A DNA stretch of 46,260 nucleotides from Planctomycetota bacterium (GCA_021808995.1 JAKBAP010000001.1:1-46260); one strand, 5' to 3'. Shown: positions 7,267 through 46,260, counted from the stretch's first letter. The notes: generated by a model from the letters alone, not told the origin. Translations and numbers: made by a program.

Positions 7267-7355
7267 GGAGAGGTGGCTGAGTGGTCGATAGCGACGGTTT
7301 GCTAAACCGTTAAACTGGGAAACCGGTTTCGGGGGTTCGAATCCCCCCCTCTCCG
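7267..7355 (+). tRNA. tRNA-Ser (anticodon GCU), class II with long variable arm
   Basis: Hand-folded cloverleaf. Acceptor GGAGAGG/CCTCTCC with discriminator G. D stem GCT/AGC. Anticodon stem ACGGT/ACCGT with loop TTGCTAA (anticodon GCT). Variable arm AAACTGG-GAAA-CCGGTTT, 7 bp. T arm GGGGG-TTCGAAT-CCCCC. CCA not encoded. Confidence 0.95.
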
Positions 7356-25033: not shown

Positions 25034-26959
25034 TTACCCAATGGGATAAAACGGTGCATGATCAGGCCCCAGTCTGGGCGCTTTCGGAATCCGAGGCAAG
25101 CCGCCGATGGGGACCAGCTTGCCATGGATGAACTTGTAATACGTCCCCGTCGGCGGGACCGGATGCAAGCGCGAGGTCCGGCGGTGCGGATTGCCGGCGA
25201 ACATCACGGCCGTCGCCTTCGAAGGCCTAAATCGCACGTGCCCAGCCAACCCGATCAGCTTGTTCGTGCCCGGCCCGCCAATCAGGGTCGTCTGTCCGAA
25301 CCAGCCATGTTCGAGGCTAAAGCCCGATCCACCGGTGACGTAATTGCGAATCCCATGTCCGCCATCGAGCGTGACCGGGATCGTCACCGAGGGGTCCACC
25401 ACGATGTCATTGTTGGCCCTGCGACCACCAAAGACCACGACCTCGTTCAGGCTCGAGATCGCCGGTTGGGTCGAATCCAGCACGCCGTTGACCGTCACCT
25501 CGATGATGTCGCTTCCGGTCCCCGAGGGGTTCGCGACCTGGTCGACCTGGATCTTGTTCGTCCCCTTGTCGTATCGCGGCAACGGTGTCACGAACAACAC
25601 CGGCCCAACCAGGGCGACCGTCCCCGTGAGGATCGGCCCGACCTGGATCGTGGCCGTGGCGGAATTGCTGGTGGTCGTCAGCGAGGTCGGGATATTCGTG
25701 CTTCCCTGTTGCGGGCCGGTCCCGGTCACGTCGTAGCTCACCTTGTCGGTACCCAGAAAGCCAGGGTTGGGGGTATAGGTAAAGGTCCCGGTCGTGGCGT
25801 TGAAATTCGACACGGTCCCGTGCTGGGGCTGAGACAACAGCGTGTAGCTCAGCGTCGAGGGGGTAGCCGAATTGGGGTATCCGCTTGTTCCCGATAGCGT
25901 CACCGTCGTCGGCGTGTTGAGCTTCGTCGTCGCCGAGACCGCGTTCGCGAACGGCTTGAAATTGATCGGAGGACTGATCGGACCGGCGTACGCCCCCACG
26001 GTCACCACGAACGACTGGCTCACCTGGAGATGGCTCAGGGTGTCGGTCGCCGTCACCGTGATCGTCGACGTCTGGCCCTGGGCCGCCTGGGTCGTATCCA
26101 AGACGAGGACGCCGTTGGGATCCTGCGAGGAGAGCGAGGCCGACGTAATGTTGATCGGGTTTACAGGATAGGAATTCTCTTGCGTCACCGGGTTGGCCTG
26201 GACCGGAACCTGGGTCATCTTGGCCAGAATTGTCTGCCCGGTGAGCATCTGCCCAAAGATCGTATATCCATAGCCGAGGGCGGAGTTGGGCGACCCCGTC
26301 GTGATGAAAAACTGGGTGTCGTTGGTGCCATTCGGCGCGGGGGAGCCAGCGTTGTTCGCGTTGGCCATCGCGAGCTGATCAACGCCGGTGAAGGCGAGCT
26401 GCTGAATGTTTTCATTGGGGAAGGGCGTCCCAGGCTGCCCGCTCGAGCCCGTCCCAGTGCGATTGGGCGCTCCCCCCTGCGCGATATAGTCGGTGGCGTT
26501 GGGGAAACCGCCAAAGATCCGAGTGAAATACTTGTTGGTATACCAACCATCATTGGTGAATGTCTGAATCTCATTGACCGTATTGGGCGTCAGATCCTTG
26601 AAGAGCTGAAACGTCATCGGACCCGAGAAGTTGTTCGAGGTATTCGAGGGATCGGTGTACGAGACATTGACCGTCCAGAACAGCGACCCCCCCGCGATCG
26701 AGGCGGCCACCTCGGGATTGCTCGAGGTCACGGAGAAGGTCTGGGGGTCCGTGAACCCACTCGCCGCCAGGAGCGGGACGGTATAACCCTGCTTGGACGG
26801 AACCGTCAAGTTGGTGATCGGCTGGAGCGAGGCGTTCGAACCGGTCATGAGCCGGCGATCCTCGAGCCGCTCAAGCCCGAGCCTCGAACTCACCCGACGC
26901 CGCGGCAGGGTCGCCCCAACCTTCGTGAATGATCCAAACTGATTCAGACGTCGCCACAT
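25034..26959 (-). CDS. cyclophilin-type peptidyl-prolyl isomerase domain + Ig/cadherin-like repeats + Gly-rich C-terminal region; N-terminal LE-x-LE-x-R-x-L motif
   Basis: The track ORF extends to 27892, but that part is antisense to the kinase gene. ATG at 26959 (MWRRLNQFGSF...; GGAGA upstream) fits, with 27028 as an alternative. PPIase signature FTRIFGGF..YIAQGG..GTG..QLAMANA..NGTNDTQFFITTG..YTIFGQM. Then T/S-rich Ig-like modules (FTYTPNPGFLGTDKVSYDV). Confidence 0.85.
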   Translation of the reverse strand: MWRRLNQFGSFTKVGATLPRRRVSSRLGLERLEDRRLMTGSNASLQPITNLTVPSKQGYTVPLLAASGFTDPQTFSVTSSNPEVAASIAGGSLFWTVNVSYTDPSNTSNNFSGPMTFQLFKDLTPNTVNEIQTFTNDGWYTNKYFTRIFGGFPNATDYIAQGGAPNRTGTGSSGQPGTPFPNENIQQLAFTGVDQLAMANANNAGSPAPNGTNDTQFFITTGSPNSALGYGYTIFGQMLTGQTILAKMTQVPVQANPVTQENSYPVNPINITSASLSSQDPNGVLVLDTTQAAQGQTSTITVTATDTLSHLQVSQSFVVTVGAYAGPISPPINFKPFANAVSATTKLNTPTTVTLSGTSGYPNSATPSTLSYTLLSQPQHGTVSNFNATTGTFTYTPNPGFLGTDKVSYDVTGTGPQQGSTNIPTSLTTTSNSATATIQVGPILTGTVALVGPVLFVTPLPRYDKGTNKIQVDQVANPSGTGSDIIEVTVNGVLDSTQPAISSLNEVVVFGGRRANNDIVVDPSVTIPVTLDGGHGIRNYVTGGSGFSLEHGWFGQTTLIGGPGTNKLIGLAGHVRFRPSKATAVMFAGNPHRRTSRLHPVPPTGTYYKFIHGKLVPIGGLPRIPKAPRLGPDHAPFYPIG

Positions 26960-27316: not shown

Positions 27317-30300
27317 ATGTTGACACCCCAAGAGTCTGGACCAAAAGGCGACGCCGAATCCGACCAGCCCAAGGGGGCCGGCCGGATCGATGGCGCGTTC
27401 GCGAGCGCGGGCGCCGCCGACGCGCCAACGGTTCAGCGGGGCTCGGGAAGCTCGTCGCGCAAGGCCGCGGGGGCGAATTCGGACACGGCCCGCACGATTC
27501 CCCGCCCCGGCGACCAGATCGGCGGCTTCCTGCTCGAGCAAGTCATCGGCGAAGGGGGAATGGGGGCGGTCTTTCGGGCGGTCGACCCCAGGCTCGACCG
27601 CGAGGTCGCGCTCAAGCTCTTGCCCCTCGCCCAGGACGCCGACCCCGAGGTCGTTCAGCGCTTCCTCGAGGAGGGTCGATCCGCCGCCCGGCTCGATCAC
27701 GAAAACGTCGCGCGGGTCTACAGCATCGGCCAGGACGGCCCCTACCATTACATCGCCTTCGAATACATCGCGGGCGAAACCATCCGCCAGCGGGTCGAGA
27801 CCACGGGACCACTCACCCCCGCGCAGGCCATCACCATCACCCTGGAAATCGCCCACGCCCTGGTCCATTCCGCCAGCCGCGGCGTCGTCCACCGCGACAT
27901 CAAGCCCTCGAACATCATCATCACCCCCCAGGGACGGGCCAAGCTCGTCGACATGGGCCTCGCCCGCCGCTTCGAACGCGAAGGGGACCAGGGCCTCACC
28001 CAGACCGGCGTCACCCTGGGCACGTTTGATTATATCAGCCCCGAACAGGCCCGCGACCCCCGCGACGTCGACATCCGAAGCGATCTCTATTCACTGGGAT
28101 GCACGCTGTATCATATGCTCACGGGGCATCCTCCATTCCCCGGGGGGACGTGGCTCCAGAAGCTGATCCAGCACCAGGAGGAGCGCCCGCCGGACCCTCG
28201 GAGCGAACGGCCGGAGATTCCGGCCTCCCTGGCCGCGCTCACGGTGAAGCTCATGGCCAAGGACCGAGAGCGGCGGTGCCAATCGCCAGAAATCCTGGTG
28301 CGCGATTTGATTGTGATCGCGGCCGATCTCGGGGTGGATCTGGGGGGCGATGGGCATGGCTGGGGCGACCCGTTGCCGCGCGCGGCCTGGGAACGGCACC
28401 TGGCGTGGAGCGCCCCGGCGGCGGGATTCGTGCTGGTGCTGTTGGCGCTGGTCGCCTGGAATCGGGAGACGCCCGATCCGGCCGCGCCGCGCCCCGAGCG
28501 CCCGGTGGTGGCGGCGCGTCCGATCGAGCCGGCCCGGGTCGGCGGCCCTGAATCCAAGCCCTCCGCCGGTGGCGACCCCTCGCCCCCGGTCGAGCCCCCC
28601 CAGTTCAACCCCCGCACCATCCCGGTCAGCTCGAACGAGGATCTGCTGGAGATCCTGTCCCAGGCACCGCCGCGATCCGTGGTGGTTCTGGCCGATGATG
28701 GACCCTATCGCATCGGGGGGAGGGCCTGGTCCTCGCGCCCCACGCCGCCCCTGGCCAACCTGGACCTGACCATCAAGCCCGAGGCAGGCGTCCGCCCGGT
28801 GATCCGGTTCGCGTCCGACGCCTTTCTGGCCGAGCGGCCCTCGAGCACGATTTTTGAGTTCATTGGCGGGCGCATCGTCCTCGACGGGCTGGATTTCGAG
28901 GTCGAGTCCACCGACGGCAATCTCGCCCTGACCGCGATCAAGGTCGACGGCGCGGAGCTCACGATCCGCGGCTGTACGTTCCGGCGGCCCTCGTCACAGG
29001 GGGCCGAAAACGTGACGGCCCTCGCGATCAAGGCGTTCGAGGGGCGGTCGTGGACCGAGCGCCCGCCGGCGGTCGTCGTTGACGCGAGCCATTTCGACGG
29101 CGACCAGATTGGCCTGCGGGCGTCGGGGGCGGTCGACGTGGTCTTGCGGGATTGCACGATGGGGCCAGGGGTGCCCTCGTTTCTGCTGGGCGACTCGGCT
29201 CGGCCGACCAATTCGCCGGTCGAGCTGAGGCTGATGCATTCCAGCATCCTGGTGGGCGAGACCGAGGTCTTTCGGATCAAGGGGGGGCCGGCGCGGGTCT
29301 GGGCCGACGATTGCGTCATCGCCCGTTCGGGTGCCCGATCGGGGACCTTGGTCGCGGTTCCCGACGAGCGCGAGCTCATCTGGCGCGGTCGATCGAATCT
29401 CTATGGGGGGATTGGCGAGTTCCTGCGGGTCGGCGGTGCCGACAAGGGGGTCGACTTCGCGCGCTGGAGCGACGCCGCCAGCCTGCGTGAGACGGGCGGG
29501 CGAGCGGTCTCGGCCTCGCCCTGGGCGGCGGCCGAGCCGGCGGTGACCCTCAAGAAATATCGCGAAAACCCTTCGCGAGCGTTTCAGCTCGCTGCGGCTG
29601 GCGGGGGCCAGGCGGGGGCCAGGCAGGGCCCCCAGGGAGCGATTCCTAGGCCTGTGATCGCGGCCCCACCCGAGGTCAATCTCGTCGCGAGCAAGGATCC
29701 GGCCCGTCCGCTTGATCAAGCCGATACGTTCGCTCGCCCCGGTTCGCGTGGCGAGCCGATCATCGACGAGCTGACCAATCCCCGCGCCATCCGCGACCCC
29801 AAGGGAGAGGCCGACGACCCCATGACCCTCCCCACCATGCCCCCGTCGACCCAGCTCGAGGCCGAGAACCGCCCCCCGGCCAATCCCGATCCACCAGTCG
29901 TCCAGTCACCCACCCAGGAATCGCGGCCTACCAGCCCCGAGCGCGACGCCGATCGCGAGCTCAAGCAAACCGATCCCGCGATGGTCCACGACGCGTCACG
30001 GCTGGCCGACGAACTGCGCAGGGCCGGCCAGCGCGGCGGGATTGTCACCCTCGCCCCCGGCTCGCGGATCGACACCCCCACGATCGTCCTCGAAGGGGAC
30101 GGCCGCCGCGAGATCCTCGCTGGACCCGACGGCGAGCGACCCCGCCTTCGCCTCCGGATCCCAGCGGGTTCGCCCCCGCTGGCCAATGCCTGGACCACCC
30201 TTCTCGACCTCCGATCGGGCTCGCTGCGGATCAAGGGCGTGGACCTGATCGTGACCGAGACGGACCCGTCCTCGAGCGCCCGTGTCGCCGCCGTCGGCGT

Positions 30301-31087
30301 CGCGTCGGGCGCTGAGCTCACCCTCGAGAATTGCACGCTCACCATCGCCTCGACCCGAGCCGGCGCGACGGCCCTGGTGGTCCCGCCGCCAACCTCGGCC
30401 CGGATCGATTCCAGCACCCCACGCGAAGCGGTCATTCGGGTTCGCGATTGTTTCCTGCGGTCCGGAGGCGACGGCGTCGCCGTCACGGGCGGGCGCAGGC
30501 TCGACCTCGAGCTCACCAACGTCCTGGCGTCCAGCGAAGGGAGCCTGATCCACGCCCATGGCGCGGCGCGGGGGGGGCGGACCGAGAAATTCGCCGTCAA
30601 CCTGCGAATCGACCAATCCACTCTCCGCGTCAAGGGAGGGGTGGTCCACCTCGACAGCACGCCCGACGCGCCCCGGATCTCCTCGGCCTCGATCGTCGCC
30701 GAGCACACGATCATCACCACCGCCGACAGCATCGACCCGATCTTCCGCCTCGACGGCCAGGACCAGCTCGACGACCTCAACGACAAAATCCGCTGGGAAT
30801 CCCTGGCCGTCGTCTATGACCACATCAAAACATACCGACGAGACGAAGTCGTCGGCTTCGGCGTGATGCCCCGGGTCTACGACCGCGCCCATTGGCTCTC
30901 GGTCTTCCAGCCCAAGGAAGAATCACCCTCCCTGGTCGAGGTCAAGTTCTCGAATCCCGCCGGGTCGTCCGTGAGCGCGTGGACGCTCGACAAGGACAAT
31001 CTCCGCCTCCCCGCCACGAGCCCCGTCCACGATCTCGGCCCCGACCTAGACCGCGTCCCGGACGCGCCCAGGTCAAGCGCCCTCTGA
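27317..31087 (+). CDS. membrane-spanning Ser/Thr protein kinase with large duplicated extracytoplasmic region
   Basis: 1256 aa. Hanks motifs GEGGMGAVF, VALKLL, HRDIKPSNIII, DMGLAR, SPEQ. TM helix LAWSAPAAGFVLVLLALVAW (about 28399-28460). Pro-rich linkers and two similar C-terminal modules. Confidence 0.92.
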   Translation: MLTPQESGPKGDAESDQPKGAGRIDGAFASAGAADAPTVQRGSGSSSRKAAGANSDTARTIPRPGDQIGGFLLEQVIGEGGMGAVFRAVDPRLDREVALKLLPLAQDADPEVVQRFLEEGRSAARLDHENVARVYSIGQDGPYHYIAFEYIAGETIRQRVETTGPLTPAQAITITLEIAHALVHSASRGVVHRDIKPSNIIITPQGRAKLVDMGLARRFEREGDQGLTQTGVTLGTFDYISPEQARDPRDVDIRSDLYSLGCTLYHMLTGHPPFPGGTWLQKLIQHQEERPPDPRSERPEIPASLAALTVKLMAKDRERRCQSPEILVRDLIVIAADLGVDLGGDGHGWGDPLPRAAWERHLAWSAPAAGFVLVLLALVAWNRETPDPAAPRPERPVVAARPIEPARVGGPESKPSAGGDPSPPVEPPQFNPRTIPVSSNEDLLEILSQAPPRSVVVLADDGPYRIGGRAWSSRPTPPLANLDLTIKPEAGVRPVIRFASDAFLAERPSSTIFEFIGGRIVLDGLDFEVESTDGNLALTAIKVDGAELTIRGCTFRRPSSQGAENVTALAIKAFEGRSWTERPPAVVVDASHFDGDQIGLRASGAVDVVLRDCTMGPGVPSFLLGDSARPTNSPVELRLMHSSILVGETEVFRIKGGPARVWADDCVIARSGARSGTLVAVPDERELIWRGRSNLYGGIGEFLRVGGADKGVDFARWSDAASLRETGGRAVSASPWAAAEPAVTLKKYRENPSRAFQLAAAGGGQAGARQGPQGAIPRPVIAAPPEVNLVASKDPARPLDQADTFARPGSRGEPIIDELTNPRAIRDPKGEADDPMTLPTMPPSTQLEAENRPPANPDPPVVQSPTQESRPTSPERDADRELKQTDPAMVHDASRLADELRRAGQRGGIVTLAPGSRIDTPTIVLEGDGRREILAGPDGERPRLRLRIPAGSPPLANAWTTLLDLRSGSLRIKGVDLIVTETDPSSSARVAAVGVASGAELTLENCTLTIASTRAGATALVVPPPTSARIDSSTPREAVIRVRDCFLRSGGDGVAVTGGRRLDLELTNVLASSEGSLIHAHGAARGGRTEKFAVNLRIDQSTLRVKGGVVHLDSTPDAPRISSASIVAEHTIITTADSIDPIFRLDGQDQLDDLNDKIRWESLAVVYDHIKTYRRDEVVGFGVMPRVYDRAHWLSVFQPKEESPSLVEVKFSNPAGSSVSAWTLDKDNLRLPATSPVHDLGPDLDRVPDAPRSSAL

Positions 31088-32306: not shown

Positions 32307-33089
32307 TTAATTGTATCCCTTGTCGGCGGGGTTGAGAGCGCCCGAGGCATTCAAGAGCCCGTTCACCACCATGATGACCCGGCCCGAGCCCAGGGTGCCG
32401 GGGCGCGGATGGGCGTCCGGAATAAACTGAAACCGGACATCGCCCAGGCCCATGTTCCAGTTGTTGACGCTGCTGGGCGCGTTCCCGTTCGCCAGCGGGC
32501 TTATGAGCGTCCCATTGCTATTGAGATAGTTGCCCGGGAAATTTCCCGAACCTGGGATCGCCGTGCCGGCCCCGGTAAACATCGTGCCCGAGCTCGCGTC
32601 ATGCACCCAGTTCAGGTGGGTGGGCAAGCCGTGGACCTCGGTCCCGGTCGGACCGGAGAGATCAAGCACGATGCTCGCGCCCGTGTTCAGGGCTGCCCCG
32701 CTCAGGAAATTGACCACGCCCGTCACGGTTCCACTCGGACTCGAGGGCTCGAAGATGAAGAACTGAAAATGGAGTCGACGGGAAAAGTTGCTGGTCGACG
32801 GCTTGCCATAGCCATGGATCGAGATCGATTGGGTGCTGAATCGGCCGGGGCCGACCGTGTAATAGCCGATGGATCGCGCTGTGAACGACTCACGCTTGAC
32901 CTCGGCCGCCGTTGGCTGAGGTGTCCCCGGCGGATACAGGATCGGCACGAATTGCTGAACGTCGAGCGCGGGATAGTGGCGGCCAGGAAGAGCTGGCCCG
33001 AGCGACGACATGAGCTCACGGTCCTCAAGCCCCTCGAGCCTGGGCCGTAGGCGCTTCGATCGGCGATCGCGCGGCGTTTCGATGCTCAT
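32307..33089 (-). CDS. uncharacterised family, tandem paralog 1 (260 aa)
   Basis: ATG 33089 with GGAAGGAG 7 nt upstream. N-terminus MSIETPRDRRSKRLRPRLEGLEDRELMSS. Shared blocks with the two upstream genes (EVKRESFTARSIGYYTVGPGRFS..SISIHGYG; ...GSGRVIMVVNGLLN). Confidence 0.85.
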   Translation of the reverse strand: MSIETPRDRRSKRLRPRLEGLEDRELMSSLGPALPGRHYPALDVQQFVPILYPPGTPQPTAAEVKRESFTARSIGYYTVGPGRFSTQSISIHGYGKPSTSNFSRRLHFQFFIFEPSSPSGTVTGVVNFLSGAALNTGASIVLDLSGPTGTEVHGLPTHLNWVHDASSGTMFTGAGTAIPGSGNFPGNYLNSNGTLISPLANGNAPSSVNNWNMGLGDVRFQFIPDAHPRPGTLGSGRVIMVVNGLLNASGALNPADKGYN

Positions 33090-33126
33090 TGATCGACTCC
33101 TTCCATACCACCCATGCCGCCGGTCC

Positions 33127-33972
33127 TCACGAATAATACTTAGAGACCGCGCTCGCCATCTGGTTGTAATTCAAGAGCCCCTGGAACGTGACGATCGCCT
33201 GTCCGGAACCCATGGTCCCGGGCTGGGCGTGGGGCGACGGCCGATAGACGATGTCAAGCGTGCCCGTCCCCTGCGTGAATCCAGCGGGAGCGATGAATGG
33301 ACCGCCACTGTTGGTGTCGAAGGTCCAAGACAACTGCCTTGGCAGCGGGCCGTTGGCCGCCGGGTCGCCCTGCGCTCCATGAAGGTCCAGGACCAAGAGC
33401 CCGCCAGACTGAAGATAGTTTTCCGGGAAGAGCCCCGCGATGCCGGTGGTCTGGCCAGCGTAGGGGTCGCCAGGCGTCGGCGTGGCGTTCGGGTCGGCGG
33501 GGGGAAAGAGGGCGATCTGGAACTTTCCCTTGAGAAAGGCGTTTGAACCGCCATCGACACCATAGAAATGGATCGTGCTCGCGCGGTCGCTAAACCGCGG
33601 TGTACCGATCGTGTAATGGCCGATCCAGCGAGCGGTGAAGGTTTCCCGCTTGATTTCCCGAGGCGAGGGGGTCATCGGAGTGGCCGAGCCGGGACCATAG
33701 AGCAGGTTCGCCGACTGGGCGATGACCCTGGGATTCAGGAACGGCCCCTGGGGTTGCGACCCGTAAAAGCCATGATGGCTCCCGACCCTCGCCTGGGCGA
33801 TTTCAGCCTGGAGCGCCGAGACGTAAGCCGGGACTCGAGCGGTTTGGTGAGTGATCCCGATCCGAGAGGGCAGATCGCGCTTTTCCAGCGGTTCGAGCGC
33901 CGGCCGCGCGGCGGCCCGTGCGCGCCGGCGCGGTCTTTCGCCTTTGATCCAGCCGTCGTCGACGAAACCCAT
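33127..33972 (-). CDS. uncharacterised family, tandem paralog 2 (281 aa)
   Basis: ATG 33972, 13 nt after the upstream stop (GAGGGG overlaps that stop). RPRRRARAAARPALEPLEKRDLPS. EIKRETFTARWIGHYTIGTPRFSDRASTIHFYG. LFPPADPNATPTPGDPYAGQ. GSGQAIVTFQGLLN. Confidence 0.85.
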   Translation of the reverse strand: MGFVDDGWIKGERPRRRARAAARPALEPLEKRDLPSRIGITHQTARVPAYVSALQAEIAQARVGSHHGFYGSQPQGPFLNPRVIAQSANLLYGPGSATPMTPSPREIKRETFTARWIGHYTIGTPRFSDRASTIHFYGVDGGSNAFLKGKFQIALFPPADPNATPTPGDPYAGQTTGIAGLFPENYLQSGGLLVLDLHGAQGDPAANGPLPRQLSWTFDTNSGGPFIAPAGFTQGTGTLDIVYRPSPHAQPGTMGSGQAIVTFQGLLNYNQMASAVSKYYS

Positions 33973-33985
33973 GGCCGCCTGCCCC

Positions 33986-34957
33986 TCAGTTGATTCCCTG
34001 GAAGAGCGCGTTCAGCGTCCCGCTCTCATGCACGAGCCCCTGAATGCGAACCACCACTGTCCCCGACTGGCTCGCCCCGGCACGCAAGCGACCATCGGGC
34101 TTATAAAAGACCTCGATCAAGCCCATCCCCTGGGTATAGGCGACCGCCCCCCCCGCGCCCCCCTGAACGGCGATCGGTTGACCCGTGGAAGGGTTGGTCT
34201 GAACCGCCGGCGTGGTCGCGTAGGCGGGATTGGTGAACGCCCCCGCCCCCGTCGTGTCGAGCGTGAAACCCAGCCGCGAGGGAAGCCCATGCTGGAGCGC
34301 CTGGGGCGCGTTGCTGGGCACGCCCGGCAGATTGTTGACATCAAAGAGGATCTGATCGGAGGTTTGCAGGTAATTGCCCGGGATGATCGAGGAGATCCCG
34401 GCGATCTGGCCCGCGACGGGGTCGAGGGTGGTCGGCGTCGCCGAGGGGTCGGCTGGGGGGAACAAGAGCAACTGCGCCCGGCCTTGCAAGAACCAGTTCG
34501 AGGCCACGCTTCGGCCATCGCTATAGATATGGATCGTGGCCGACTGATTGGAAAACCGGGGCGCTCCCACCGAGTAGCGACCGGTGTAAGTGGCCCAGAA
34601 GGTCTGCCTACGAAGCTCGTGGGGAGTTGGCTGGGCCGAGGCGTAGGTCCCCGCCGGAAACACCTGCCCACCAATCGCGATCGGCTGGGTCGTAGTGACC
34701 GGGGCGTAAAGCGTGCTCGCCAGTGAATCGATATAGTTTTGGTTGACCCACCGAGGCGTGGCCGCCGCCGACTGAGCATTCTGGGCCGCCGGCCGAGCGC
34801 CCGCGAGCACCAGATTGAGCGCCGGCACGTTGACGCGCGGATGATCCACCCGGCCCATGATATGCAACCCCGACGGCAGCTCGCGGTGCTCGAGCCGCTC
34901 GATATCAGGTCGGCATCCCCGTCCGAGGGCTTCCCGTCGCCGGCTTCCCGCTCGCAT
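33986..34957 (-). CDS. uncharacterised family, tandem paralog 3 (323 aa from ATG 34957; track ORF starts at GTG 34996)
   Basis: GAGAGGAG sits 8-9 nt upstream of ATG 34957. MRAGSRRREALGRGCRPDIERLEHRELPS. ELRRQTFWATYTGRYSVGAPRFSNQSATIHIYS. LFPPADPSATPTTLDPVAGQ. QSGTVVVRIQGLVH. Confidence 0.85.
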   Translation of the reverse strand: MRAGSRRREALGRGCRPDIERLEHRELPSGLHIMGRVDHPRVNVPALNLVLAGARPAAQNAQSAAATPRWVNQNYIDSLASTLYAPVTTTQPIAIGGQVFPAGTYASAQPTPHELRRQTFWATYTGRYSVGAPRFSNQSATIHIYSDGRSVASNWFLQGRAQLLLFPPADPSATPTTLDPVAGQIAGISSIIPGNYLQTSDQILFDVNNLPGVPSNAPQALQHGLPSRLGFTLDTTGAGAFTNPAYATTPAVQTNPSTGQPIAVQGGAGGAVAYTQGMGLIEVFYKPDGRLRAGASQSGTVVVRIQGLVHESGTLNALFQGIN

Positions 34958-35013
34958 CAACCCACTCCTCTCACCCCAAACCCCCGTCCCGCCCACGCCC
35001 GAGCCCTGGTATT

Positions 35014-36678
35014 TCAGGGAAGAATCCGCTCGCCCACCGCCGTGTTCAAATCCAGGATCGCGCGGCGATGACGAACCATCGCGTCACGATACGCCCGAAC
35101 CACGTCGTTGAAATCTTGCTGGGCCGCCAGATACTCAAGGGCGCTGGTGTTGCCGCCCCGGAACCGGTCGAGGGCCTTGTCGCGGGCACTCCGCGAGGTC
35201 GGAATGATCTCGGTTCGCAGCCGTTCGACGGCCGCCCGGCTTTGCTCGAGCTCTTGCTCGGCGTTCAAGACATCGCTCACGACTGTCCGCTCCTGGCTCG
35301 CCATCTGGATCTCGGTCTGCGGAATGTTGATCTTGGCCCGCGCGACGTTCCCCTGGTTGCGATTAAAAAGCGGAACCGTCGCGGTGACGCCCAGCGTCCA
35401 CGAATAGGCGCTCGGAACCCCGAGATAGGTGTTGTTTTGCAGGGTATAGGGCTGATAAAGCAGATAGACGTCGGGATAGCCGTTAGCCTTCGCGAGCTTG
35501 AGGTCGGCGTTGGCCCGTCGAATGGCGATCCGGGCCGCGGCCAGATCCGGGCGCCGCTCAAGCCCCTTGGCCACCAGGTCGGTCCGCGACAACGGAGCCG
35601 ACTGCAAGAGCCCCACCGAGTCCCGCACCCGAATGTCGTCAACCCGATCCAGCGGCATGTTCAGGATCAAGGCCAACGCGCGATTGGCCTTGGACCGCGC
35701 GATGATCGCCTCTTGCAACTGGAGCTCGGACTTCATCACGTTGGCCTTCATCGTCAGCACATCCGACTGCTGGACCTGATCCCCCTTATAGAGGAGCTCG
35801 GTGAGCTTGAGCACCTTGCGAATACCCGTCAGATAGAGCTCGCTGAACTGCACCGTGAGACCGGCGGCGACCACGTCCTCGTAAAAGGTATAAAGATTGT
35901 CGATCTGATTGCGCACCGCGTCCTGGAGCTGGGCCTCGGTCACGTACTTGGCGGCCTTGGCCGATTCGATCCGCGCCAGCCTCTTGAACGTGACATCCAG
36001 AGGAAGGTTCAGGTTGATATCACTCTGGGGTGGCCCGCCCGGGCGCAGGAACGAGAAATGACCGTAGGGAATGAGCTGGGTGTCCGCGTAAAAGACCGGG
36101 TTGGCGCGCAAGCCCGCCGTGAGGAGGTCGGCCTGGGCCATCGGGATCTCCAGGCGGGCCGCCTGGAGGTCGAGGTTTTGCTTGACCACGATCTCGATCG
36201 CCGTGTCCAGGTTCATCCCGTTTTCGGGTCCAAACATGACGAAATCGGCCGGCAAGTCGAGCTCGCCATACTGAGGGACCTGCGCCTCCGTCGCGATCTG
36301 AGTGATCGCCTGCTGCGCGCCCTGGGTCCGAAAGACAGGCATTCCCGGGCTGGCGAAGGCGGCGGCCGGGACATGGGTCCCCTGCGGTCCAGGCCGGCCG
36401 CTCAAGGGGGCGTTCGACGGAGTGTCGTACGACGGGAAATTGGCCGAGCCCAGCGGCTGGCCGACCATGCTGGCCCCTCCGGCCGCGCCCGGAGGCGCTC
36501 CCACGTCAAACTGCGGCCCCTGCGCATGGGCCGCCGTCGATGTCAGCCAGACCGCGATAATCAGGGCGCACACTCGACTCGCCTTGGCATGAAGCCACGC
36601 TCGTCGCCCGCCCCCATGGCTCGATCCGTTCCTGGTCCACGACCTGGAACCGAGCCGTTCCCCATCCTGACGATCCAT
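35014..36678 (-). CDS. TolC-family outer-membrane efflux/secretion factor (OMF)
   Basis: 554 aa. AGGAGG 8 nt upstream of ATG 36678. Signal sequence ...RVCALIIAVWLTSTAAHA. OEP-type repeats (LDTAIEIVVKQNLDLQAARLEIPMAQADLLTAGLRANP...; second repeat ...RPDLAAARIAIRRANADLKLAKA...). Confidence 0.88.
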   Translation of the reverse strand: MDRQDGERLGSRSWTRNGSSHGGGRRAWLHAKASRVCALIIAVWLTSTAAHAQGPQFDVGAPPGAAGGASMVGQPLGSANFPSYDTPSNAPLSGRPGPQGTHVPAAAFASPGMPVFRTQGAQQAITQIATEAQVPQYGELDLPADFVMFGPENGMNLDTAIEIVVKQNLDLQAARLEIPMAQADLLTAGLRANPVFYADTQLIPYGHFSFLRPGGPPQSDINLNLPLDVTFKRLARIESAKAAKYVTEAQLQDAVRNQIDNLYTFYEDVVAAGLTVQFSELYLTGIRKVLKLTELLYKGDQVQQSDVLTMKANVMKSELQLQEAIIARSKANRALALILNMPLDRVDDIRVRDSVGLLQSAPLSRTDLVAKGLERRPDLAAARIAIRRANADLKLAKANGYPDVYLLYQPYTLQNNTYLGVPSAYSWTLGVTATVPLFNRNQGNVARAKINIPQTEIQMASQERTVVSDVLNAEQELEQSRAAVERLRTEIIPTSRSARDKALDRFRGGNTSALEYLAAQQDFNDVVRAYRDAMVRHRRAILDLNTAVGERILP

Positions 36679-37097
36679 TCCGATCGACCTCCTGTCGTTC
36701 GGACGCCCATTCGGCCGACTGCCTGTTCCGGGGCCGACGTCCTGTCAGCCTGAAACACGATGAACCCATCATCTCGACGCCGGCGAACAAGCCCGACGAC
36801 CGTGGTCCGCGATTCGCGACCATGCGCCAAGAATGGCGCGAAGACATGGTGAGAAATGATGGTTTACTTCGTATACCGAATCCCGCGAGAGACGTGAAGG
36901 CCGATTTACAATGAAAATCAAAGGGACCGTCAAGATCCGCCGATCGGCGGCTTGTTGCAAAACCGGTGGAAACGCCGTCTAATACGGTTGAATGAAAGGA
37001 AGCCATGGCGATCCGTGACCGGCCGCGGCCGCCGAGGTTTCCCGTACCCCGCCGCGCCGGCGGGCGCGAGCACCCCACCCCAAGGAAATCCTCGACC

Positions 37098-37625
37098 ATG
37101 GCCGACGATCCGGCGCGTTACCCTAGACGTCAACTGATCACGGCCGCGGGCACCCTCGGCCTGGGCCTGGTCGCGACCGGATCAGCCGCCGCGCGGGAAG
37201 AGAGTGATTCACCCCGATCCAGGCGCATCAGCGAGGAAGCCGTCGTCGGAACCAGCGTCGTCAGGTCGCCCGATTACAGCGAAGCGAAAAAATACTCCCT
37301 GATCCACGTCCTCGAGCATGTCTTCCACCAGGACGAGGTCGTTGACTCCGGCTTTCCAGTCACCCGGACCAAGGACTTCACGATCAGTCCCGCCGTCAAG
37401 CTTGCCCTGGTCACGATGAGCGGCTTCGAGGTCTGGCTCGGCACGACGGAACAAGAGTACTACGCCGCCACGTCCCGGCTCGGGGTCCATGCCGCCCTTG
37501 AGGCCGATTTCGCCCGCCATGCGCTCACGGTCAAGGCCCGCGCGAACTACCGGTTCTGGGGAAAAGTCGACTGCGAGTGGACCTGGCGATGCCACGTCGT
37601 GGTCCACTGCCATGGCGAAGCCTGA
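37098..37625 (+). CDS. small Tat-exported hypothetical protein, paralog A (175 aa)
   Basis: Track ORF begins at 37005. ATG 37098 aligns residue-for-residue with paralog B. MADDPARYPRRQLITAAGTLGLGLVATGSAAA (RR motif, h-region, AxA), mature part ...SRRISEEAVVG...FPVTRTKDF...MSGFEVWLGTTEQEY...CEWTWRCHVVVHCHGEA. Confidence 0.8.
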   Translation: MADDPARYPRRQLITAAGTLGLGLVATGSAAAREESDSPRSRRISEEAVVGTSVVRSPDYSEAKKYSLIHVLEHVFHQDEVVDSGFPVTRTKDFTISPAVKLALVTMSGFEVWLGTTEQEYYAATSRLGVHAALEADFARHALTVKARANYRFWGKVDCEWTWRCHVVVHCHGEA

Positions 37626-37706: not shown

Positions 37707-38237
37707 ATGTCCAGCGATCCGTCGAAAGACAGCCGGCGAGATCTCCTCGCGGCGGCAAGCGCCCTCGGCCTGGGGGCGTTCCTGTCCGGGAACACCCAGG
37801 CGGCCCAGGACCGAACGCAATGGGTGCGATCCCGGAAAATCAGCGAGGAGGTCGTCGTCGGCAACAGCATCGCCAAGGCCCCCAATTACAAGGAAGGGGC
37901 GAAACTCTCCCTGATCCAGGTGATCGAGCACGTCTTCAAGCAAGACGAGGACACCGCCGCCGGCTACCCCGTGACCAGAACCAAGGAATTCAAGGTCAAG
38001 CCCACGACCAAGCTAGCGGTGGCGACACTGAGCGGTTTCGAGTTCTGGTTTGGCACCCCCGAGCAAGAATACATGTTCGCCAAGTCGCGCGAGGGAGTGA
38101 ACGCCGCCCTCGAGGCGGATCTCTCCCATGGCTCACTGACCCTCAAGCTCCGCGCGAACGCCAGGCGATCCAACCGCATCGACTACGAATGGACCTGGAG
38201 ATGCCACGTCGTGATCCAATGCTTTGGCGATGCGTGA
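37707..38237 (+). CDS. small Tat-exported hypothetical protein, paralog B (176 aa)
   Basis: MSSDPSKDSRRDLLAAASALGLGAFLSGNTQAA, then ...SRKISEEVVVG...YPVTRTKEF...LSGFEFWFGTPEQEY...YEWTWRCHVVIQCFGDA. The 3' ends of the two genes are also similar at nucleotide level (tggacctgg.gatgccacgtcgtg.tcca). Confidence 0.85.
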   Translation: MSSDPSKDSRRDLLAAASALGLGAFLSGNTQAAQDRTQWVRSRKISEEVVVGNSIAKAPNYKEGAKLSLIQVIEHVFKQDEDTAAGYPVTRTKEFKVKPTTKLAVATLSGFEFWFGTPEQEYMFAKSREGVNAALEADLSHGSLTLKLRANARRSNRIDYEWTWRCHVVIQCFGDA

Positions 38238-44457: not shown

Positions 44458-45984
44458 TCAGACCAGTCTCGAAAGCGCCTCCCGGGCCTGGATGATCAGC
44501 GGGCTGTCGGGGGTTTTCGAGCCTGGGAATTGAGACATGGCGGCGGCGATCATGGGGGCCTGCCAGGCTCGATCGGTCGAGGCGATAGCCTCTTCACAGA
44601 GGGCGGCGGCGTATTTGTAGTCGTGGCTGTCTCGTCCCTTGCGAAAGATCAGGCTTCGTGCCGCCGCGAAGACCTGGCCCGTCGAGCCCCCTCGGGCCAC
44701 GTAATCGAGGGCGAGCCCGCCGGCCTTCTTGCGATCGCTCGAGACGGCCTCGAAAATCGCGGCGACCGCGTCATCGCCGGGCGTGGGGCCGTGGCCCGCG
44801 GGTTCTAGACTGTCGATCGCGACGGGGTTCGTGGGCTTGGTTCGGTCGCGGTACATCGGCTGCCAACCGACCGCTTGCAAGAGGGCGAGCTTGCGGGTGG
44901 TGTCGTCGCCGCATGAATTGTAGATATAATGAAGCGAGTTACTCGCGGTTGTCGCGTGGAGGGCGATGATTCCGGGGCTGTTCATGAGCAGCTCGCTGGC
45001 CGAGAGCATGACCGAGTCCCAGATTGAGCCGGGCGAGACGCCCCGATTGAGCATCCTGGCGGCCTCGGCCGAGGCGGCTTCGGGGGTGGCGTGGCGGAGC
45101 GTTTCGAGCATGCCTTTGGTCGCGCCGGCGTCGTCCTTGCCCATCATCCAGTCGGGTCCGAGTTTGGATGCCGTCTCGAGATTCGCCTGGTAAGGTCCGA
45201 CGGGTTGGGGCGACGCGCCGCCCATCCCGCCAAGGTCGAGCAGGGCATAGGCCACCGAACGGAGGACCGGCTCGGCGTGCGCCCAACCGATCGTTTGCAG
45301 AGTCCGCCAGCTCTGCGCGGCGAAGATCGCCTTGTGCCCGATGTCTCGCTGATCGCGCACGGCCATCCGCCAGAGCGGCTCCATCGCCGCGGCCGACCCC
45401 AAGGATCGGACGAGCGAGCTCACCGCGCGGTCGGCTCCCTCGGTATCCCAGCGCTCCATGGCGCGGAAAAACTCCTCGCGCGCCTGGCCTGGTTTGGGGA
45501 GTTGGTTCGACGGCGGTGCTAACGCCCAGTCGCCTTCCTTGACATCCTGGGCCTGTGACGACTTGAAATTGTCAAACGCCCAGAACAAGGGCAAAAGCCG
45601 GTCCTGGGGCGGAGCCGCGATCGCCAGCTCGTGCGCTGAGTTCATCACCATGACCGCGTGGAATTTGAAGCCCACCGGGCGCGGTTGGATGTTACGAATG
45701 CCCGCCAGGAACAGCCCCGCCAGCAGCTCCTTGTACGAAAGCCCCGCCTTCAGCCTGTCGACCGCGATGGCGATGACCCGGTCGCGCGGGGTTTCCTCGA
45801 TCATCCGCACGATGGGCTCGATCTCGGGGCGGAATCGCACCATCTCGGGCGTCACGCGGGCGTCCTGGCTCGAACGAGGGCTGATCCGCGCGAGCGCGGG
45901 CCAGGGCGCGAGCTCCGCTCCCACGCCCAGCGCGGCCGCGGTGCCCAGGAACCGACGACGCGGCATCGATCGCTTGGATTTCAT
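44458..45984 (-). CDS. Tat-signal hypothetical protein (508 aa)
   Basis: ATG 45984 gives MKSKRSMPRRRFLGTAAALGVGAELAPWPALA (twin-arginine signal). Largely helical-looking body, no family recognised. Confidence 0.8.
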   Translation of the reverse strand: MKSKRSMPRRRFLGTAAALGVGAELAPWPALARISPRSSQDARVTPEMVRFRPEIEPIVRMIEETPRDRVIAIAVDRLKAGLSYKELLAGLFLAGIRNIQPRPVGFKFHAVMVMNSAHELAIAAPPQDRLLPLFWAFDNFKSSQAQDVKEGDWALAPPSNQLPKPGQAREEFFRAMERWDTEGADRAVSSLVRSLGSAAAMEPLWRMAVRDQRDIGHKAIFAAQSWRTLQTIGWAHAEPVLRSVAYALLDLGGMGGASPQPVGPYQANLETASKLGPDWMMGKDDAGATKGMLETLRHATPEAASAEAARMLNRGVSPGSIWDSVMLSASELLMNSPGIIALHATTASNSLHYIYNSCGDDTTRKLALLQAVGWQPMYRDRTKPTNPVAIDSLEPAGHGPTPGDDAVAAIFEAVSSDRKKAGGLALDYVARGGSTGQVFAAARSLIFRKGRDSHDYKYAAALCEEAIASTDRAWQAPMIAAAMSQFPGSKTPDSPLIIQAREALSRLV

Positions 45985-46260
45985 GCTGGTCTCTCCCCGG
46001 CGGGTCGCGTGGAGGGCGTCGCCCGAGTCGAGTGGATTCGGGACAAAGGGCGCGAGCACGACTCGCCAGCCTCATTATGCAAGTGGAGACGTCGAGTTCT
46101 CAAGCCATCGCGAGTCAGGGTCGCCGACGGTAAAGGATCCGCGAAAAACAAATTGATCAATTATCACTGTCTGGGTCCACGCGTCGAAGCGGGGCGTTGT
46201 CCGTGCCCACCTGGGAGCGCGGTCGCCAGATACCGTCAAAGCTCCGGCTCCATCCATTTT

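Follow-up and report, generated by a model that had tools for sequence, protein, structure and literature searches.

What is the role of a short N-terminal motif that recurs on four proteins, each of them devoid of a hydrophobic signal-peptide core? The question is raised by a stretch of 46,260 nucleotides from a Planctomycetota bacterium (GCA_021808995.1 JAKBAP010000001.1:1-46260), the whole of which is called the window below. In it, a protein with a cyclophilin domain and three tandem paralogs all begin with an arginine-rich segment followed by a core of the form LExLExRxL. The four N-termini prove to be copies of an N-terminal tag that is already known from planctomycetes, modelled as PF07595 in Pfam and of the motif class of LEPR-XLL in NCBIfam. 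The window copies are divergent members of an Isosphaeraceae type that fall below the curated thresholds, and the motif itself has been described before. We consider it probable (about 0.75) that this known tag acts as a putative linear targeting signal, directing proteins to the cell envelope or surface. The genes and their tags are as follows.

25034-26959, minus strand: cyclophilin gene, 641 amino acids (aa), with an N-terminal tag, a cyclophilin domain, a Big_9/cadherin-like Ig domain and a Gly-rich beta-strand C-terminal region
26837-26908, minus strand: tag of the cyclophilin protein, ...TLPRRRVSSRLG-LERLEDRRL-MT, core at 26849-26875
32307-33089, minus strand: paralog 1, 260 aa, of a beta-rich family, no Pfam or NCBIfam match, 37% identity to paralog 2
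32997-33077, minus strand: tag of paralog 1, RDRRSKRLRPR-LEGLEDREL-MS, core at 33012-33038
33127-33972, minus strand: paralog 2, 281 aa, with 245 homologs, none of which has a Pfam domain
33859-33942, minus strand: tag of paralog 2, RPRRRARAAARPA-LEPLEKRDL-PS, core at 33871-33897
33986-34996, minus strand: paralog 3 in the list of open reading frames (ORFs), 336 aa from a GTG at 34996 or 323 aa from an ATG at 34957
34865-34948, minus strand: tag of paralog 3, SRRREALGRGCRPD-IERLEHREL-PS, core at 34877-34903

The likeness between the four N-termini could in principle be due to chance or low complexity, or the conserved stretch could be a non-coding leader with translation starting after the motif. 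The core is a short one in which five positions are fixed, GC-rich genomes are commonly rich in arginine stretches, and a gene caller began the cyclophilin product at M38, past the motif. The observed frequencies argue otherwise. The expression [LIVMF]E.[LIVMF]E.R.[LIVMFP], run over the six-frame translation of the window, matches the four cores, all on the minus strand and each preceded by an Arg-rich stretch; a fifth match, FEWLERRLP, lies inside an HrpB helicase and looks like a chance match. These 5 matches compare with 0.18 expected and with a maximum of 2 in 200 first-order Markov simulations. A 30-column motif profile, built from relatives with the window's own rows left out, gives 35.0 bits for paralog 1, 25.5 for paralog 2, 24.7 for paralog 3 and 20.6 for the cyclophilin protein, against 8.2 bits for the next best six-frame site. 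Both searches thus recover the motif on the four proteins for which it had been claimed in the preliminary description. The copies use different synonymous codons (CTT/CTC/CTG, GAG/GAA, CGC/CGT), and therefore the motif is conserved at the level of protein rather than RNA. Within two families (64 and 68 sequences), the core combines invariant E, L, E and R with free x positions, and most of the paralogs lack a methionine between the motif and the folded domain. In the face of the simulations, profile scores, codon differences and invariant residues, chance or an untranslated leader is unsupported and extremely improbable.

To which motif, then, do these copies belong? The Pfam model PF07595 (Planc_extracel, “Planctomycete extracellular”) has 20 positions and a gathering score of 25.5 bits. 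It aligns with residues 26-40 of the N-terminal fragment of the cyclophilin protein (E 0.0041, 17.2 bits) and with residues 13-27 of paralog 1 (E 0.14, 12.4 bits), both below that score, and gives no match for paralogs 2 and 3. An ortholog of the cyclophilin protein, P0116, carries a precomputed PF07595 annotation with the motif at the aligned position. Among 97 independent matches to the motif profile, 13 match PF07595 at E<=0.01 (best 2.4e-5) and 4 match the NCBIfam model NF012209.1 (LEPR-8K, “LEPR-XLL domain-containing protein”), which has 24 positions and a cut-off of 17 bits. The latter model is in exact alignment with LE.LEPR.LL copies obtained from other genomes with the DNA pattern described below, of which 6 out of 10 pass with 19.6-37.1 bits, a Burkholderiales copy reaching 37 bits. 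No motif match to NF012209, or to NCBIfam at large, is found at E<=10 for the window proteins and the four N-terminal fragments, in which the proline before the arginine is missing. Judged by their sequence, the window copies are of the same motif class as LEPR-XLL, but strictly speaking do not qualify as LEPR-XLL themselves. A profile made from the cyclophilin orthologs alone matches paralog 1 (E 6.6e-5) and paralog 3 (0.017), not paralog 2.

Further characteristics of the known tag are found as well. All four copies have the ExLExRxL(L) core after basic residues and lie at the N-terminus, and the carriers are planctomycete proteins with extracellular-type domains. In the cyclophilin protein, Pfam recognizes Pro_isomerase (1.5e-22) and Big_9 (1.8e-6); its 789 homologs, where named, come from Isosphaeraceae or Isosphaerales, and cadherin-like, PKD, Calx-beta and FG-GAP domains are among the cargo. 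The window, which also encodes PSCyt1, PSCyt2/PSD1 and DUF1501 proteins, belongs to an Isosphaeraceae planctomycete. In its proposal as a new N-terminal signal for export by Studholme et al. 2004, as cited in PMC8567305, the motif reads RRLxxExLExRxLLA, and a Gemmataceae variant, LxLExLExRxxP, occurs on 52 proteins of Tuwongella immobilis (PMC8567305). The preliminary description knew of no formal account of the motif; on this point it does not hold, as PF07595, Studholme et al. 2004 (via PMC8567305) and NF012209 already describe the motif class.

The tag is strongly constrained in its position. In the cyclophilin family, the motif is present in 102 of the 120 homologs listed; nearly all of these begin with a conserved MW(D)RIR and have the motif at residue 32-33, and the remainder are truncated; in an alignment of 64 sequences, E30, L32, E33 and R35 are invariant. 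For the paralogs, 104 of 120 relatives have the motif, typically 17-20 residues past the methionine, and E27, L29, E30 and R32 are invariant among 68 aligned sequences. These four residues are as conserved as any residue of the folded domains in both alignments, and the linker that comes next is variable in length. Members of the paralog family have S/T after the tag and, next, a linker rich in Ala/Ser/Pro whose length ranges from 0 to about 60 residues. The median motif position in three sequence sets is residue 32 (103 cyclophilin orthologs), 18 (97 paralog relatives) and 29 (the third set). From the supported start codons, the core of the four window proteins starts at a distance of 17-28 residues. 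For paralog 3, the start is probably the ATG at 34957 (MRAGSRRRE...) rather than the GTG at 34996, because the motif is then 17 residues from the start, the usual position in the family.

Structure predictions suggest that the tag is disordered and that the fold begins after it. In the AlphaFold2 model of the cyclophilin protein (predicted local distance difference test, pLDDT, 83.8), residues 1-40 are disordered or of low confidence and the fold starts from about residue 41, directly past the core (residues 28-38). For paralog 2, pLDDT exceeds 90 over residues 80-270 and is low for residues 1-80. For the paralog fold itself, a Foldseek comparison with the PDB gave nothing at E<=0.001, the best hit being the Diels-Alderase AbmU at 0.023 with a TM score of about 0.25, and a sequence profile of the family found no match among PDB sequences.

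Could ordinary signal peptides have been missed through wrong start codons? It had been claimed that upstream in-frame sequence offers no hydrophobic h-region, and this is confirmed in the four proteins and in about 290 relatives. With the best 10-residue mean Kyte-Doolittle (KD) window as a measure and 2.2 as the threshold, applied to three sets of 98-103, 91-97 and 92 sequences, no sequence reaches the threshold upstream of the motif (0/98, 0/91, 0/92) or within 40 residues downstream of it (0/103, 0/97, 0/92). In the four window proteins the best values near the motif are 1.1-2.0, as compared to 2.1-3.0 for Sec controls from the same window. The tagged proteins thus lack both the h-region of a Sec (type I) signal peptide, about 7-15 hydrophobic residues past a basic n-region, and anything similar to the S/T-R-R-x-F-L-K box plus h-region of the Tat pathway. 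Arguments for misplaced starts do exist for the cyclophilin gene, upstream of which the open frame extends to 27892 and on the start of which gene callers differ, the public product P0001 being 604 aa long. However, the sequence upstream of the start has a non-coding-like G+C content at third codon positions (GC3; 0.67 versus 0.80) and overlaps a divergent kinase gene, and the MW..R start is kept in the orthologs. Upstream of the three paralog motifs, stops occur at 39-61 codons, with no hydrophobic stretch in between. The missed-signal-peptide explanation, which the upstream stops, GC3, conserved start and lack of an h-region leave unsupported, is very improbable.

Ordinary signal peptides are encoded in the window too. 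Sec-type signal peptides are present on the PSCyt2/PSD1, DUF3352, TolC-like and DUF885 proteins, and Tat-type N-termini (for example RRDFLRVGTLGAIGFGL and RRRFLGTAAALGVGA) on four other genes, namely DUF1501, 44458-46059, 37005-37625 and 37707-38237. With the tag, the organism therefore has a third type of N-terminus. An amphipathic alpha-helix was considered for the 11-residue core and rejected, as its hydrophobic moment (100 degrees) is not above that of shuffled sequences (fraction reaching the observed value 0.38-0.94).

Is the tag specific for the N-terminus and for a given class of cargo? When the 30-column profile was compared with 1.84 billion representative proteins, 100 matches were obtained at E<=1e-3, of which 95 begin within residue 60 (17 of 18 among proteins of at least 250 aa); two outliers are low-complexity repeats. 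A further homolog search with a 40-column motif alignment gave nothing at E<=10. Past the tag, Pfam recognizes Vgb_lyase and DUF5122 propellers, PKD, Calx-beta, FG-GAP, BNR, RTX, Big_5, NosD, CopC, GDSL lipase and cyclophilin domains; in addition, delta-60 and HAF repeats and CSLREA N-terminal domains are recognized by NCBIfam. The profile scan and the domain survey thus agree with the earlier idea of a fixed N-terminal tag on unrelated mature domains of extracytoplasmic-type proteins, both in the enrichment at N-termini and in the kind of domain carried.

The taxonomic distribution was assessed with an exact back-translated DNA pattern, scanned over one genome per species in 185,579 species. 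Among the 120 matches listed, 36 are in records labelled as Planctomycetota or lineages thereof, and the strict N-terminal context is seen in 19 of these 36 as compared to 5 of the 84 elsewhere (Fisher p = 2.6e-8). Planctomycetota make up only a few percent of species. Most of the non-planctomycete matches listed are internal segments of two unrelated conserved proteins. The first of these segments, R.RRLEAR.ALLA-LE.LEQR.LLAADV, lies at a distance of 200-300 codons from the beginning of an ORF and is seen in Proteobacteria, Acidimicrobiales and Vicinamibacterales; its match to the DNA pattern is coincidental, the segment being part of an unrelated conserved protein or of such a protein read in an alternate frame. 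It was found at the following loci.

L001, L004, L019, L022, L040, L045, L046, L062, L079, L097 and L101: internal R.RRLEAR segment

A second coincidental group is formed by Actinomycetota sequences of the type LLDLKAARLLP...LELLEARDLLFARL. Some copies outside the phylum appear to be genuine N-terminal tags (L050 1151-4018, L078 1-727 and L017 2-1405, all on the minus strand; labelled Deltaproteobacteria, Burkholderiales and Opitutaceae), and the tag is therefore not strictly confined to Planctomycetota.

On the basis of these elements, the anatomy of the tag can be described and a function proposed. The tag is a disordered extension of about 20-40 residues in place of a Sec or Tat signal peptide, made up of an Arg/Pro-rich stretch, often ending in R-P-x, and of [LVI]-E-x-L-E-x-R-x-L-[LPM]-[STA], and positioned at a fixed distance from the start codon, directly before a flexible linker or the first folded domain. 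A dedicated recognition step or partner would read it as a linear peptide, rather than through the insertion of a hydrophobic helix, and would route the protein to the cell envelope or surface. An envelope location is in keeping with the adjacency of the paralog trio to an outer-membrane efflux gene in all six genomes examined. The export-signal reading is repeated in PMC3343278, and 20 tagged proteins of T. immobilis have been detected by mass spectrometry, 8 of them in the fraction soluble in sodium dodecyl sulfate (SDS) only (PMC8567305). Of the proposal of a sorting signal or cleaved pro-peptide in the preliminary description, the fixed tag, the missing hydrophobic core and the extracytoplasmic-type carriers thus stand, and the literature proposes likewise; its novelty does not.

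Several observations weigh against a targeting signal of the known type. All four window copies stay under the cut-offs of both PF07595 and NF012209. A profile from the paralog family alone misses the cyclophilin copy, so that the two families are linked through the short core and bridging sequences; this link is real, but weak at the level of single sequences. Furthermore, fractionation with SDS only is also common for cytoplasmic proteins of T. immobilis (PMC8567305), many of which behave alike, and the fraction is therefore weak evidence for location. Finally, in the published accounts the export of tagged proteins stands as a proposal (PMC8567305, PMC3343278).

How do the window copies relate to known systems? 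With PF07595 (Studholme, Fuerst & Bateman 2004, Rhodopirellula baltica) they share the N-terminal position, basic residues before the core, ExLExRxL itself, the phylum, an extracellular-type cargo and the absence of a hydrophobic core. They differ in their sub-gathering scores, in ending with L-M or L-P and then S/T instead of LLA, and in often having R-P-x just before the core. The Tuwongella motif LxLExLExRxxP, from a sister family, has the same core, and paralogs 2 and 3 also have a proline three residues past the arginine (RDLP, RELP), whereas the cyclophilin protein and paralog 1 have a methionine instead. Ig-like, protease and beta-propeller domains occur on the carriers both in Tuwongella and in the window. 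The largest proteins of the Tuwongella genome stand out as carriers, 8 of the 10 longest having the tag (PMC8567305), in contrast to proteins of 260-641 aa in the window. NF012209 is likewise an N-terminal model, LE.LEPR.LLSAD, with matches to Planctomycetota and Burkholderiales copies, but in the window copies the position before the arginine is occupied by D, K or H and not by P, and the proteins after which the model is named are about 8000 aa long, some of them proteobacterial and with RTX ends.

Sec and Tat signal peptides resemble the tag in being N-terminal, in having a positively charged first part and in occurring on envelope proteins of the same organism; in the tag, however, there is no h-region and no RRxFLK box, and the place of the hydrophobic core is taken by two invariant Glu and an Arg. 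The LapA-type N-terminal retention module of type I-secreted RTX adhesins and double-glycine leader peptides are non-hydrophobic elements at the N-terminus of exported proteins, and a dedicated partner reads them. The window tag has no similarity to these in sequence, it lacks a Gly-Gly or di-alanine site, and genes of a type I transporter do not adjoin it.

A conserved gene cluster, consisting of an outer-membrane efflux protein (OEP) gene and the three tagged paralogs, is the only new lead of this analysis. The OEP gene precedes the paralogs by 18 bp and has the same orientation; its product has a classical hydrophobic region, VCALIIAVW (KD 2.9-3.0). The gene order, OEP followed by three tagged paralogs, is kept in the window and in all five of the related genomes looked up (six genomes). 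In two of them, L123 and L125, the genes next after the cluster encode a resistance-nodulation-division (RND) pump (ACR_tran) and a CzcB/CusB-type membrane-fusion protein.

35014-36678, minus strand: TolC-like OEP, Pfam OEP 4.6e-49, with a classical Sec signal peptide
32307-36678, minus strand: OEP and three-paralog cluster of the window
L121, 5647-9869: the same cluster
L123, 5342-9635: the same cluster
L125, 5428-9787: the same cluster
L126, 6101-9634: the same cluster
L122, 6466-9714: the same cluster

Does this arrangement point to a different role? It could be imagined that the tag is not an export signal but an N-terminal site of retention, anchoring or processing, by analogy with the N-terminal retention module of giant RTX adhesins, and that the proteins leave the cell in a different way, such as a type I-like pathway that depends on TolC. 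The constant position of the paralogs after a TolC-like gene, with the pump and membrane-fusion genes next in two genomes, would fit this, as would the tether-like character of the variable Ala/Ser/Pro-rich linker, the best match to NF012209 being the Burkholderiales copy with 37 bits, and the finding that tagged proteins remain in a detergent-resistant fraction and are not released (PMC8567305). However, there are no type I ABC or HlyD-type genes beside the tagged genes of the window, and the paralogs, with their 260-330 aa, have no recognizable C-terminal signal. In addition, the RTX model (PF00353, for C-terminal GGxGxD nonapeptide repeats) finds nothing in the window's cyclophilin protein and only E values of 0.1-0.24 in two orthologs, and the paralogs have no Gly-rich repeats. 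RTX repeats occur in 1 of the 97 profile matches, though most of these matches are fragments. We regard a retention or anchoring role as unlikely. A more specific version, in which the tag would mark a Sec- and Tat-independent route or surface retention via the TolC-like channel, with the OEP and the three paralogs, often accompanied by an RND pump and a membrane-fusion protein, as its dedicated module, is distinctly doubtful. If it were true, the paralogs of 260-330 aa would be a small and tractable model cargo for surface export without a signal peptide in planctomycetes.

If the tag is instead taken as the putative linear targeting signal, these small OEP-linked paralogs are equally a convenient cargo for the question of export. 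Since the motif entered the catalogues some twenty years ago, its occurrence here is no discovery. The divergent copies slip under the thresholds of both libraries. The public gene call for the cyclophilin product of the window (P0001, 604 aa) starts at Met38, just past the tag, and several metagenomic orthologs are likewise called from inside the motif (corresponding to 26849-26959, minus strand, in the window). Because the called starts fall after or inside it, the tag is hidden in annotation; owing to such gene calls and to the sub-threshold copies, annotation of Isosphaeraceae is likely to list tagged envelope proteins as cytoplasmic or to pass over them. In mechanistic terms, the question is how cargo of up to megadalton size could be brought through a two-membrane envelope by a tag that lacks a hydrophobic core and in which two Glu and one Arg are invariant.

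The C-terminal part of the cyclophilin protein has a peculiarity of its own. Residues of about 500-620 (25034-25450, minus strand) form a conserved run of Gly-rich short beta-strands, LDGGHG..NY.TGGSG...GWFG.TTLIGGPG.N.LIG.AG, which looks like a degenerate beta-roll. An RTX beta-roll proper is unsupported, with no match to PF00353 in the window protein and E values of 0.1 and 0.24 in two orthologs. Divergent from this gene is that of a Ser/Thr kinase of 1256 aa (27317-31087, plus strand), with some 900 residues past the kinase domain that have no Pfam match.

Some of the genes with Tat-type N-termini are also worth mentioning. The adjacent genes at 37005-37625 and 37707-38237 (both plus strand) encode small paralogs with Tat-type signal peptides and no Pfam domain, which have a segment KISEE.VVG.S..K.P.Y...K.SLI.V.EHVF.QD in common. 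The gene at 44458-46059 (minus strand) encodes a 533-aa protein with the twin-arginine signal PRRRFLGTAAALGVGA and without a Pfam match. The only RNA gene in the window, according to ARAGORN and Rfam, is a tRNA-Ser (GCT) at 7267-7355 on the plus strand.

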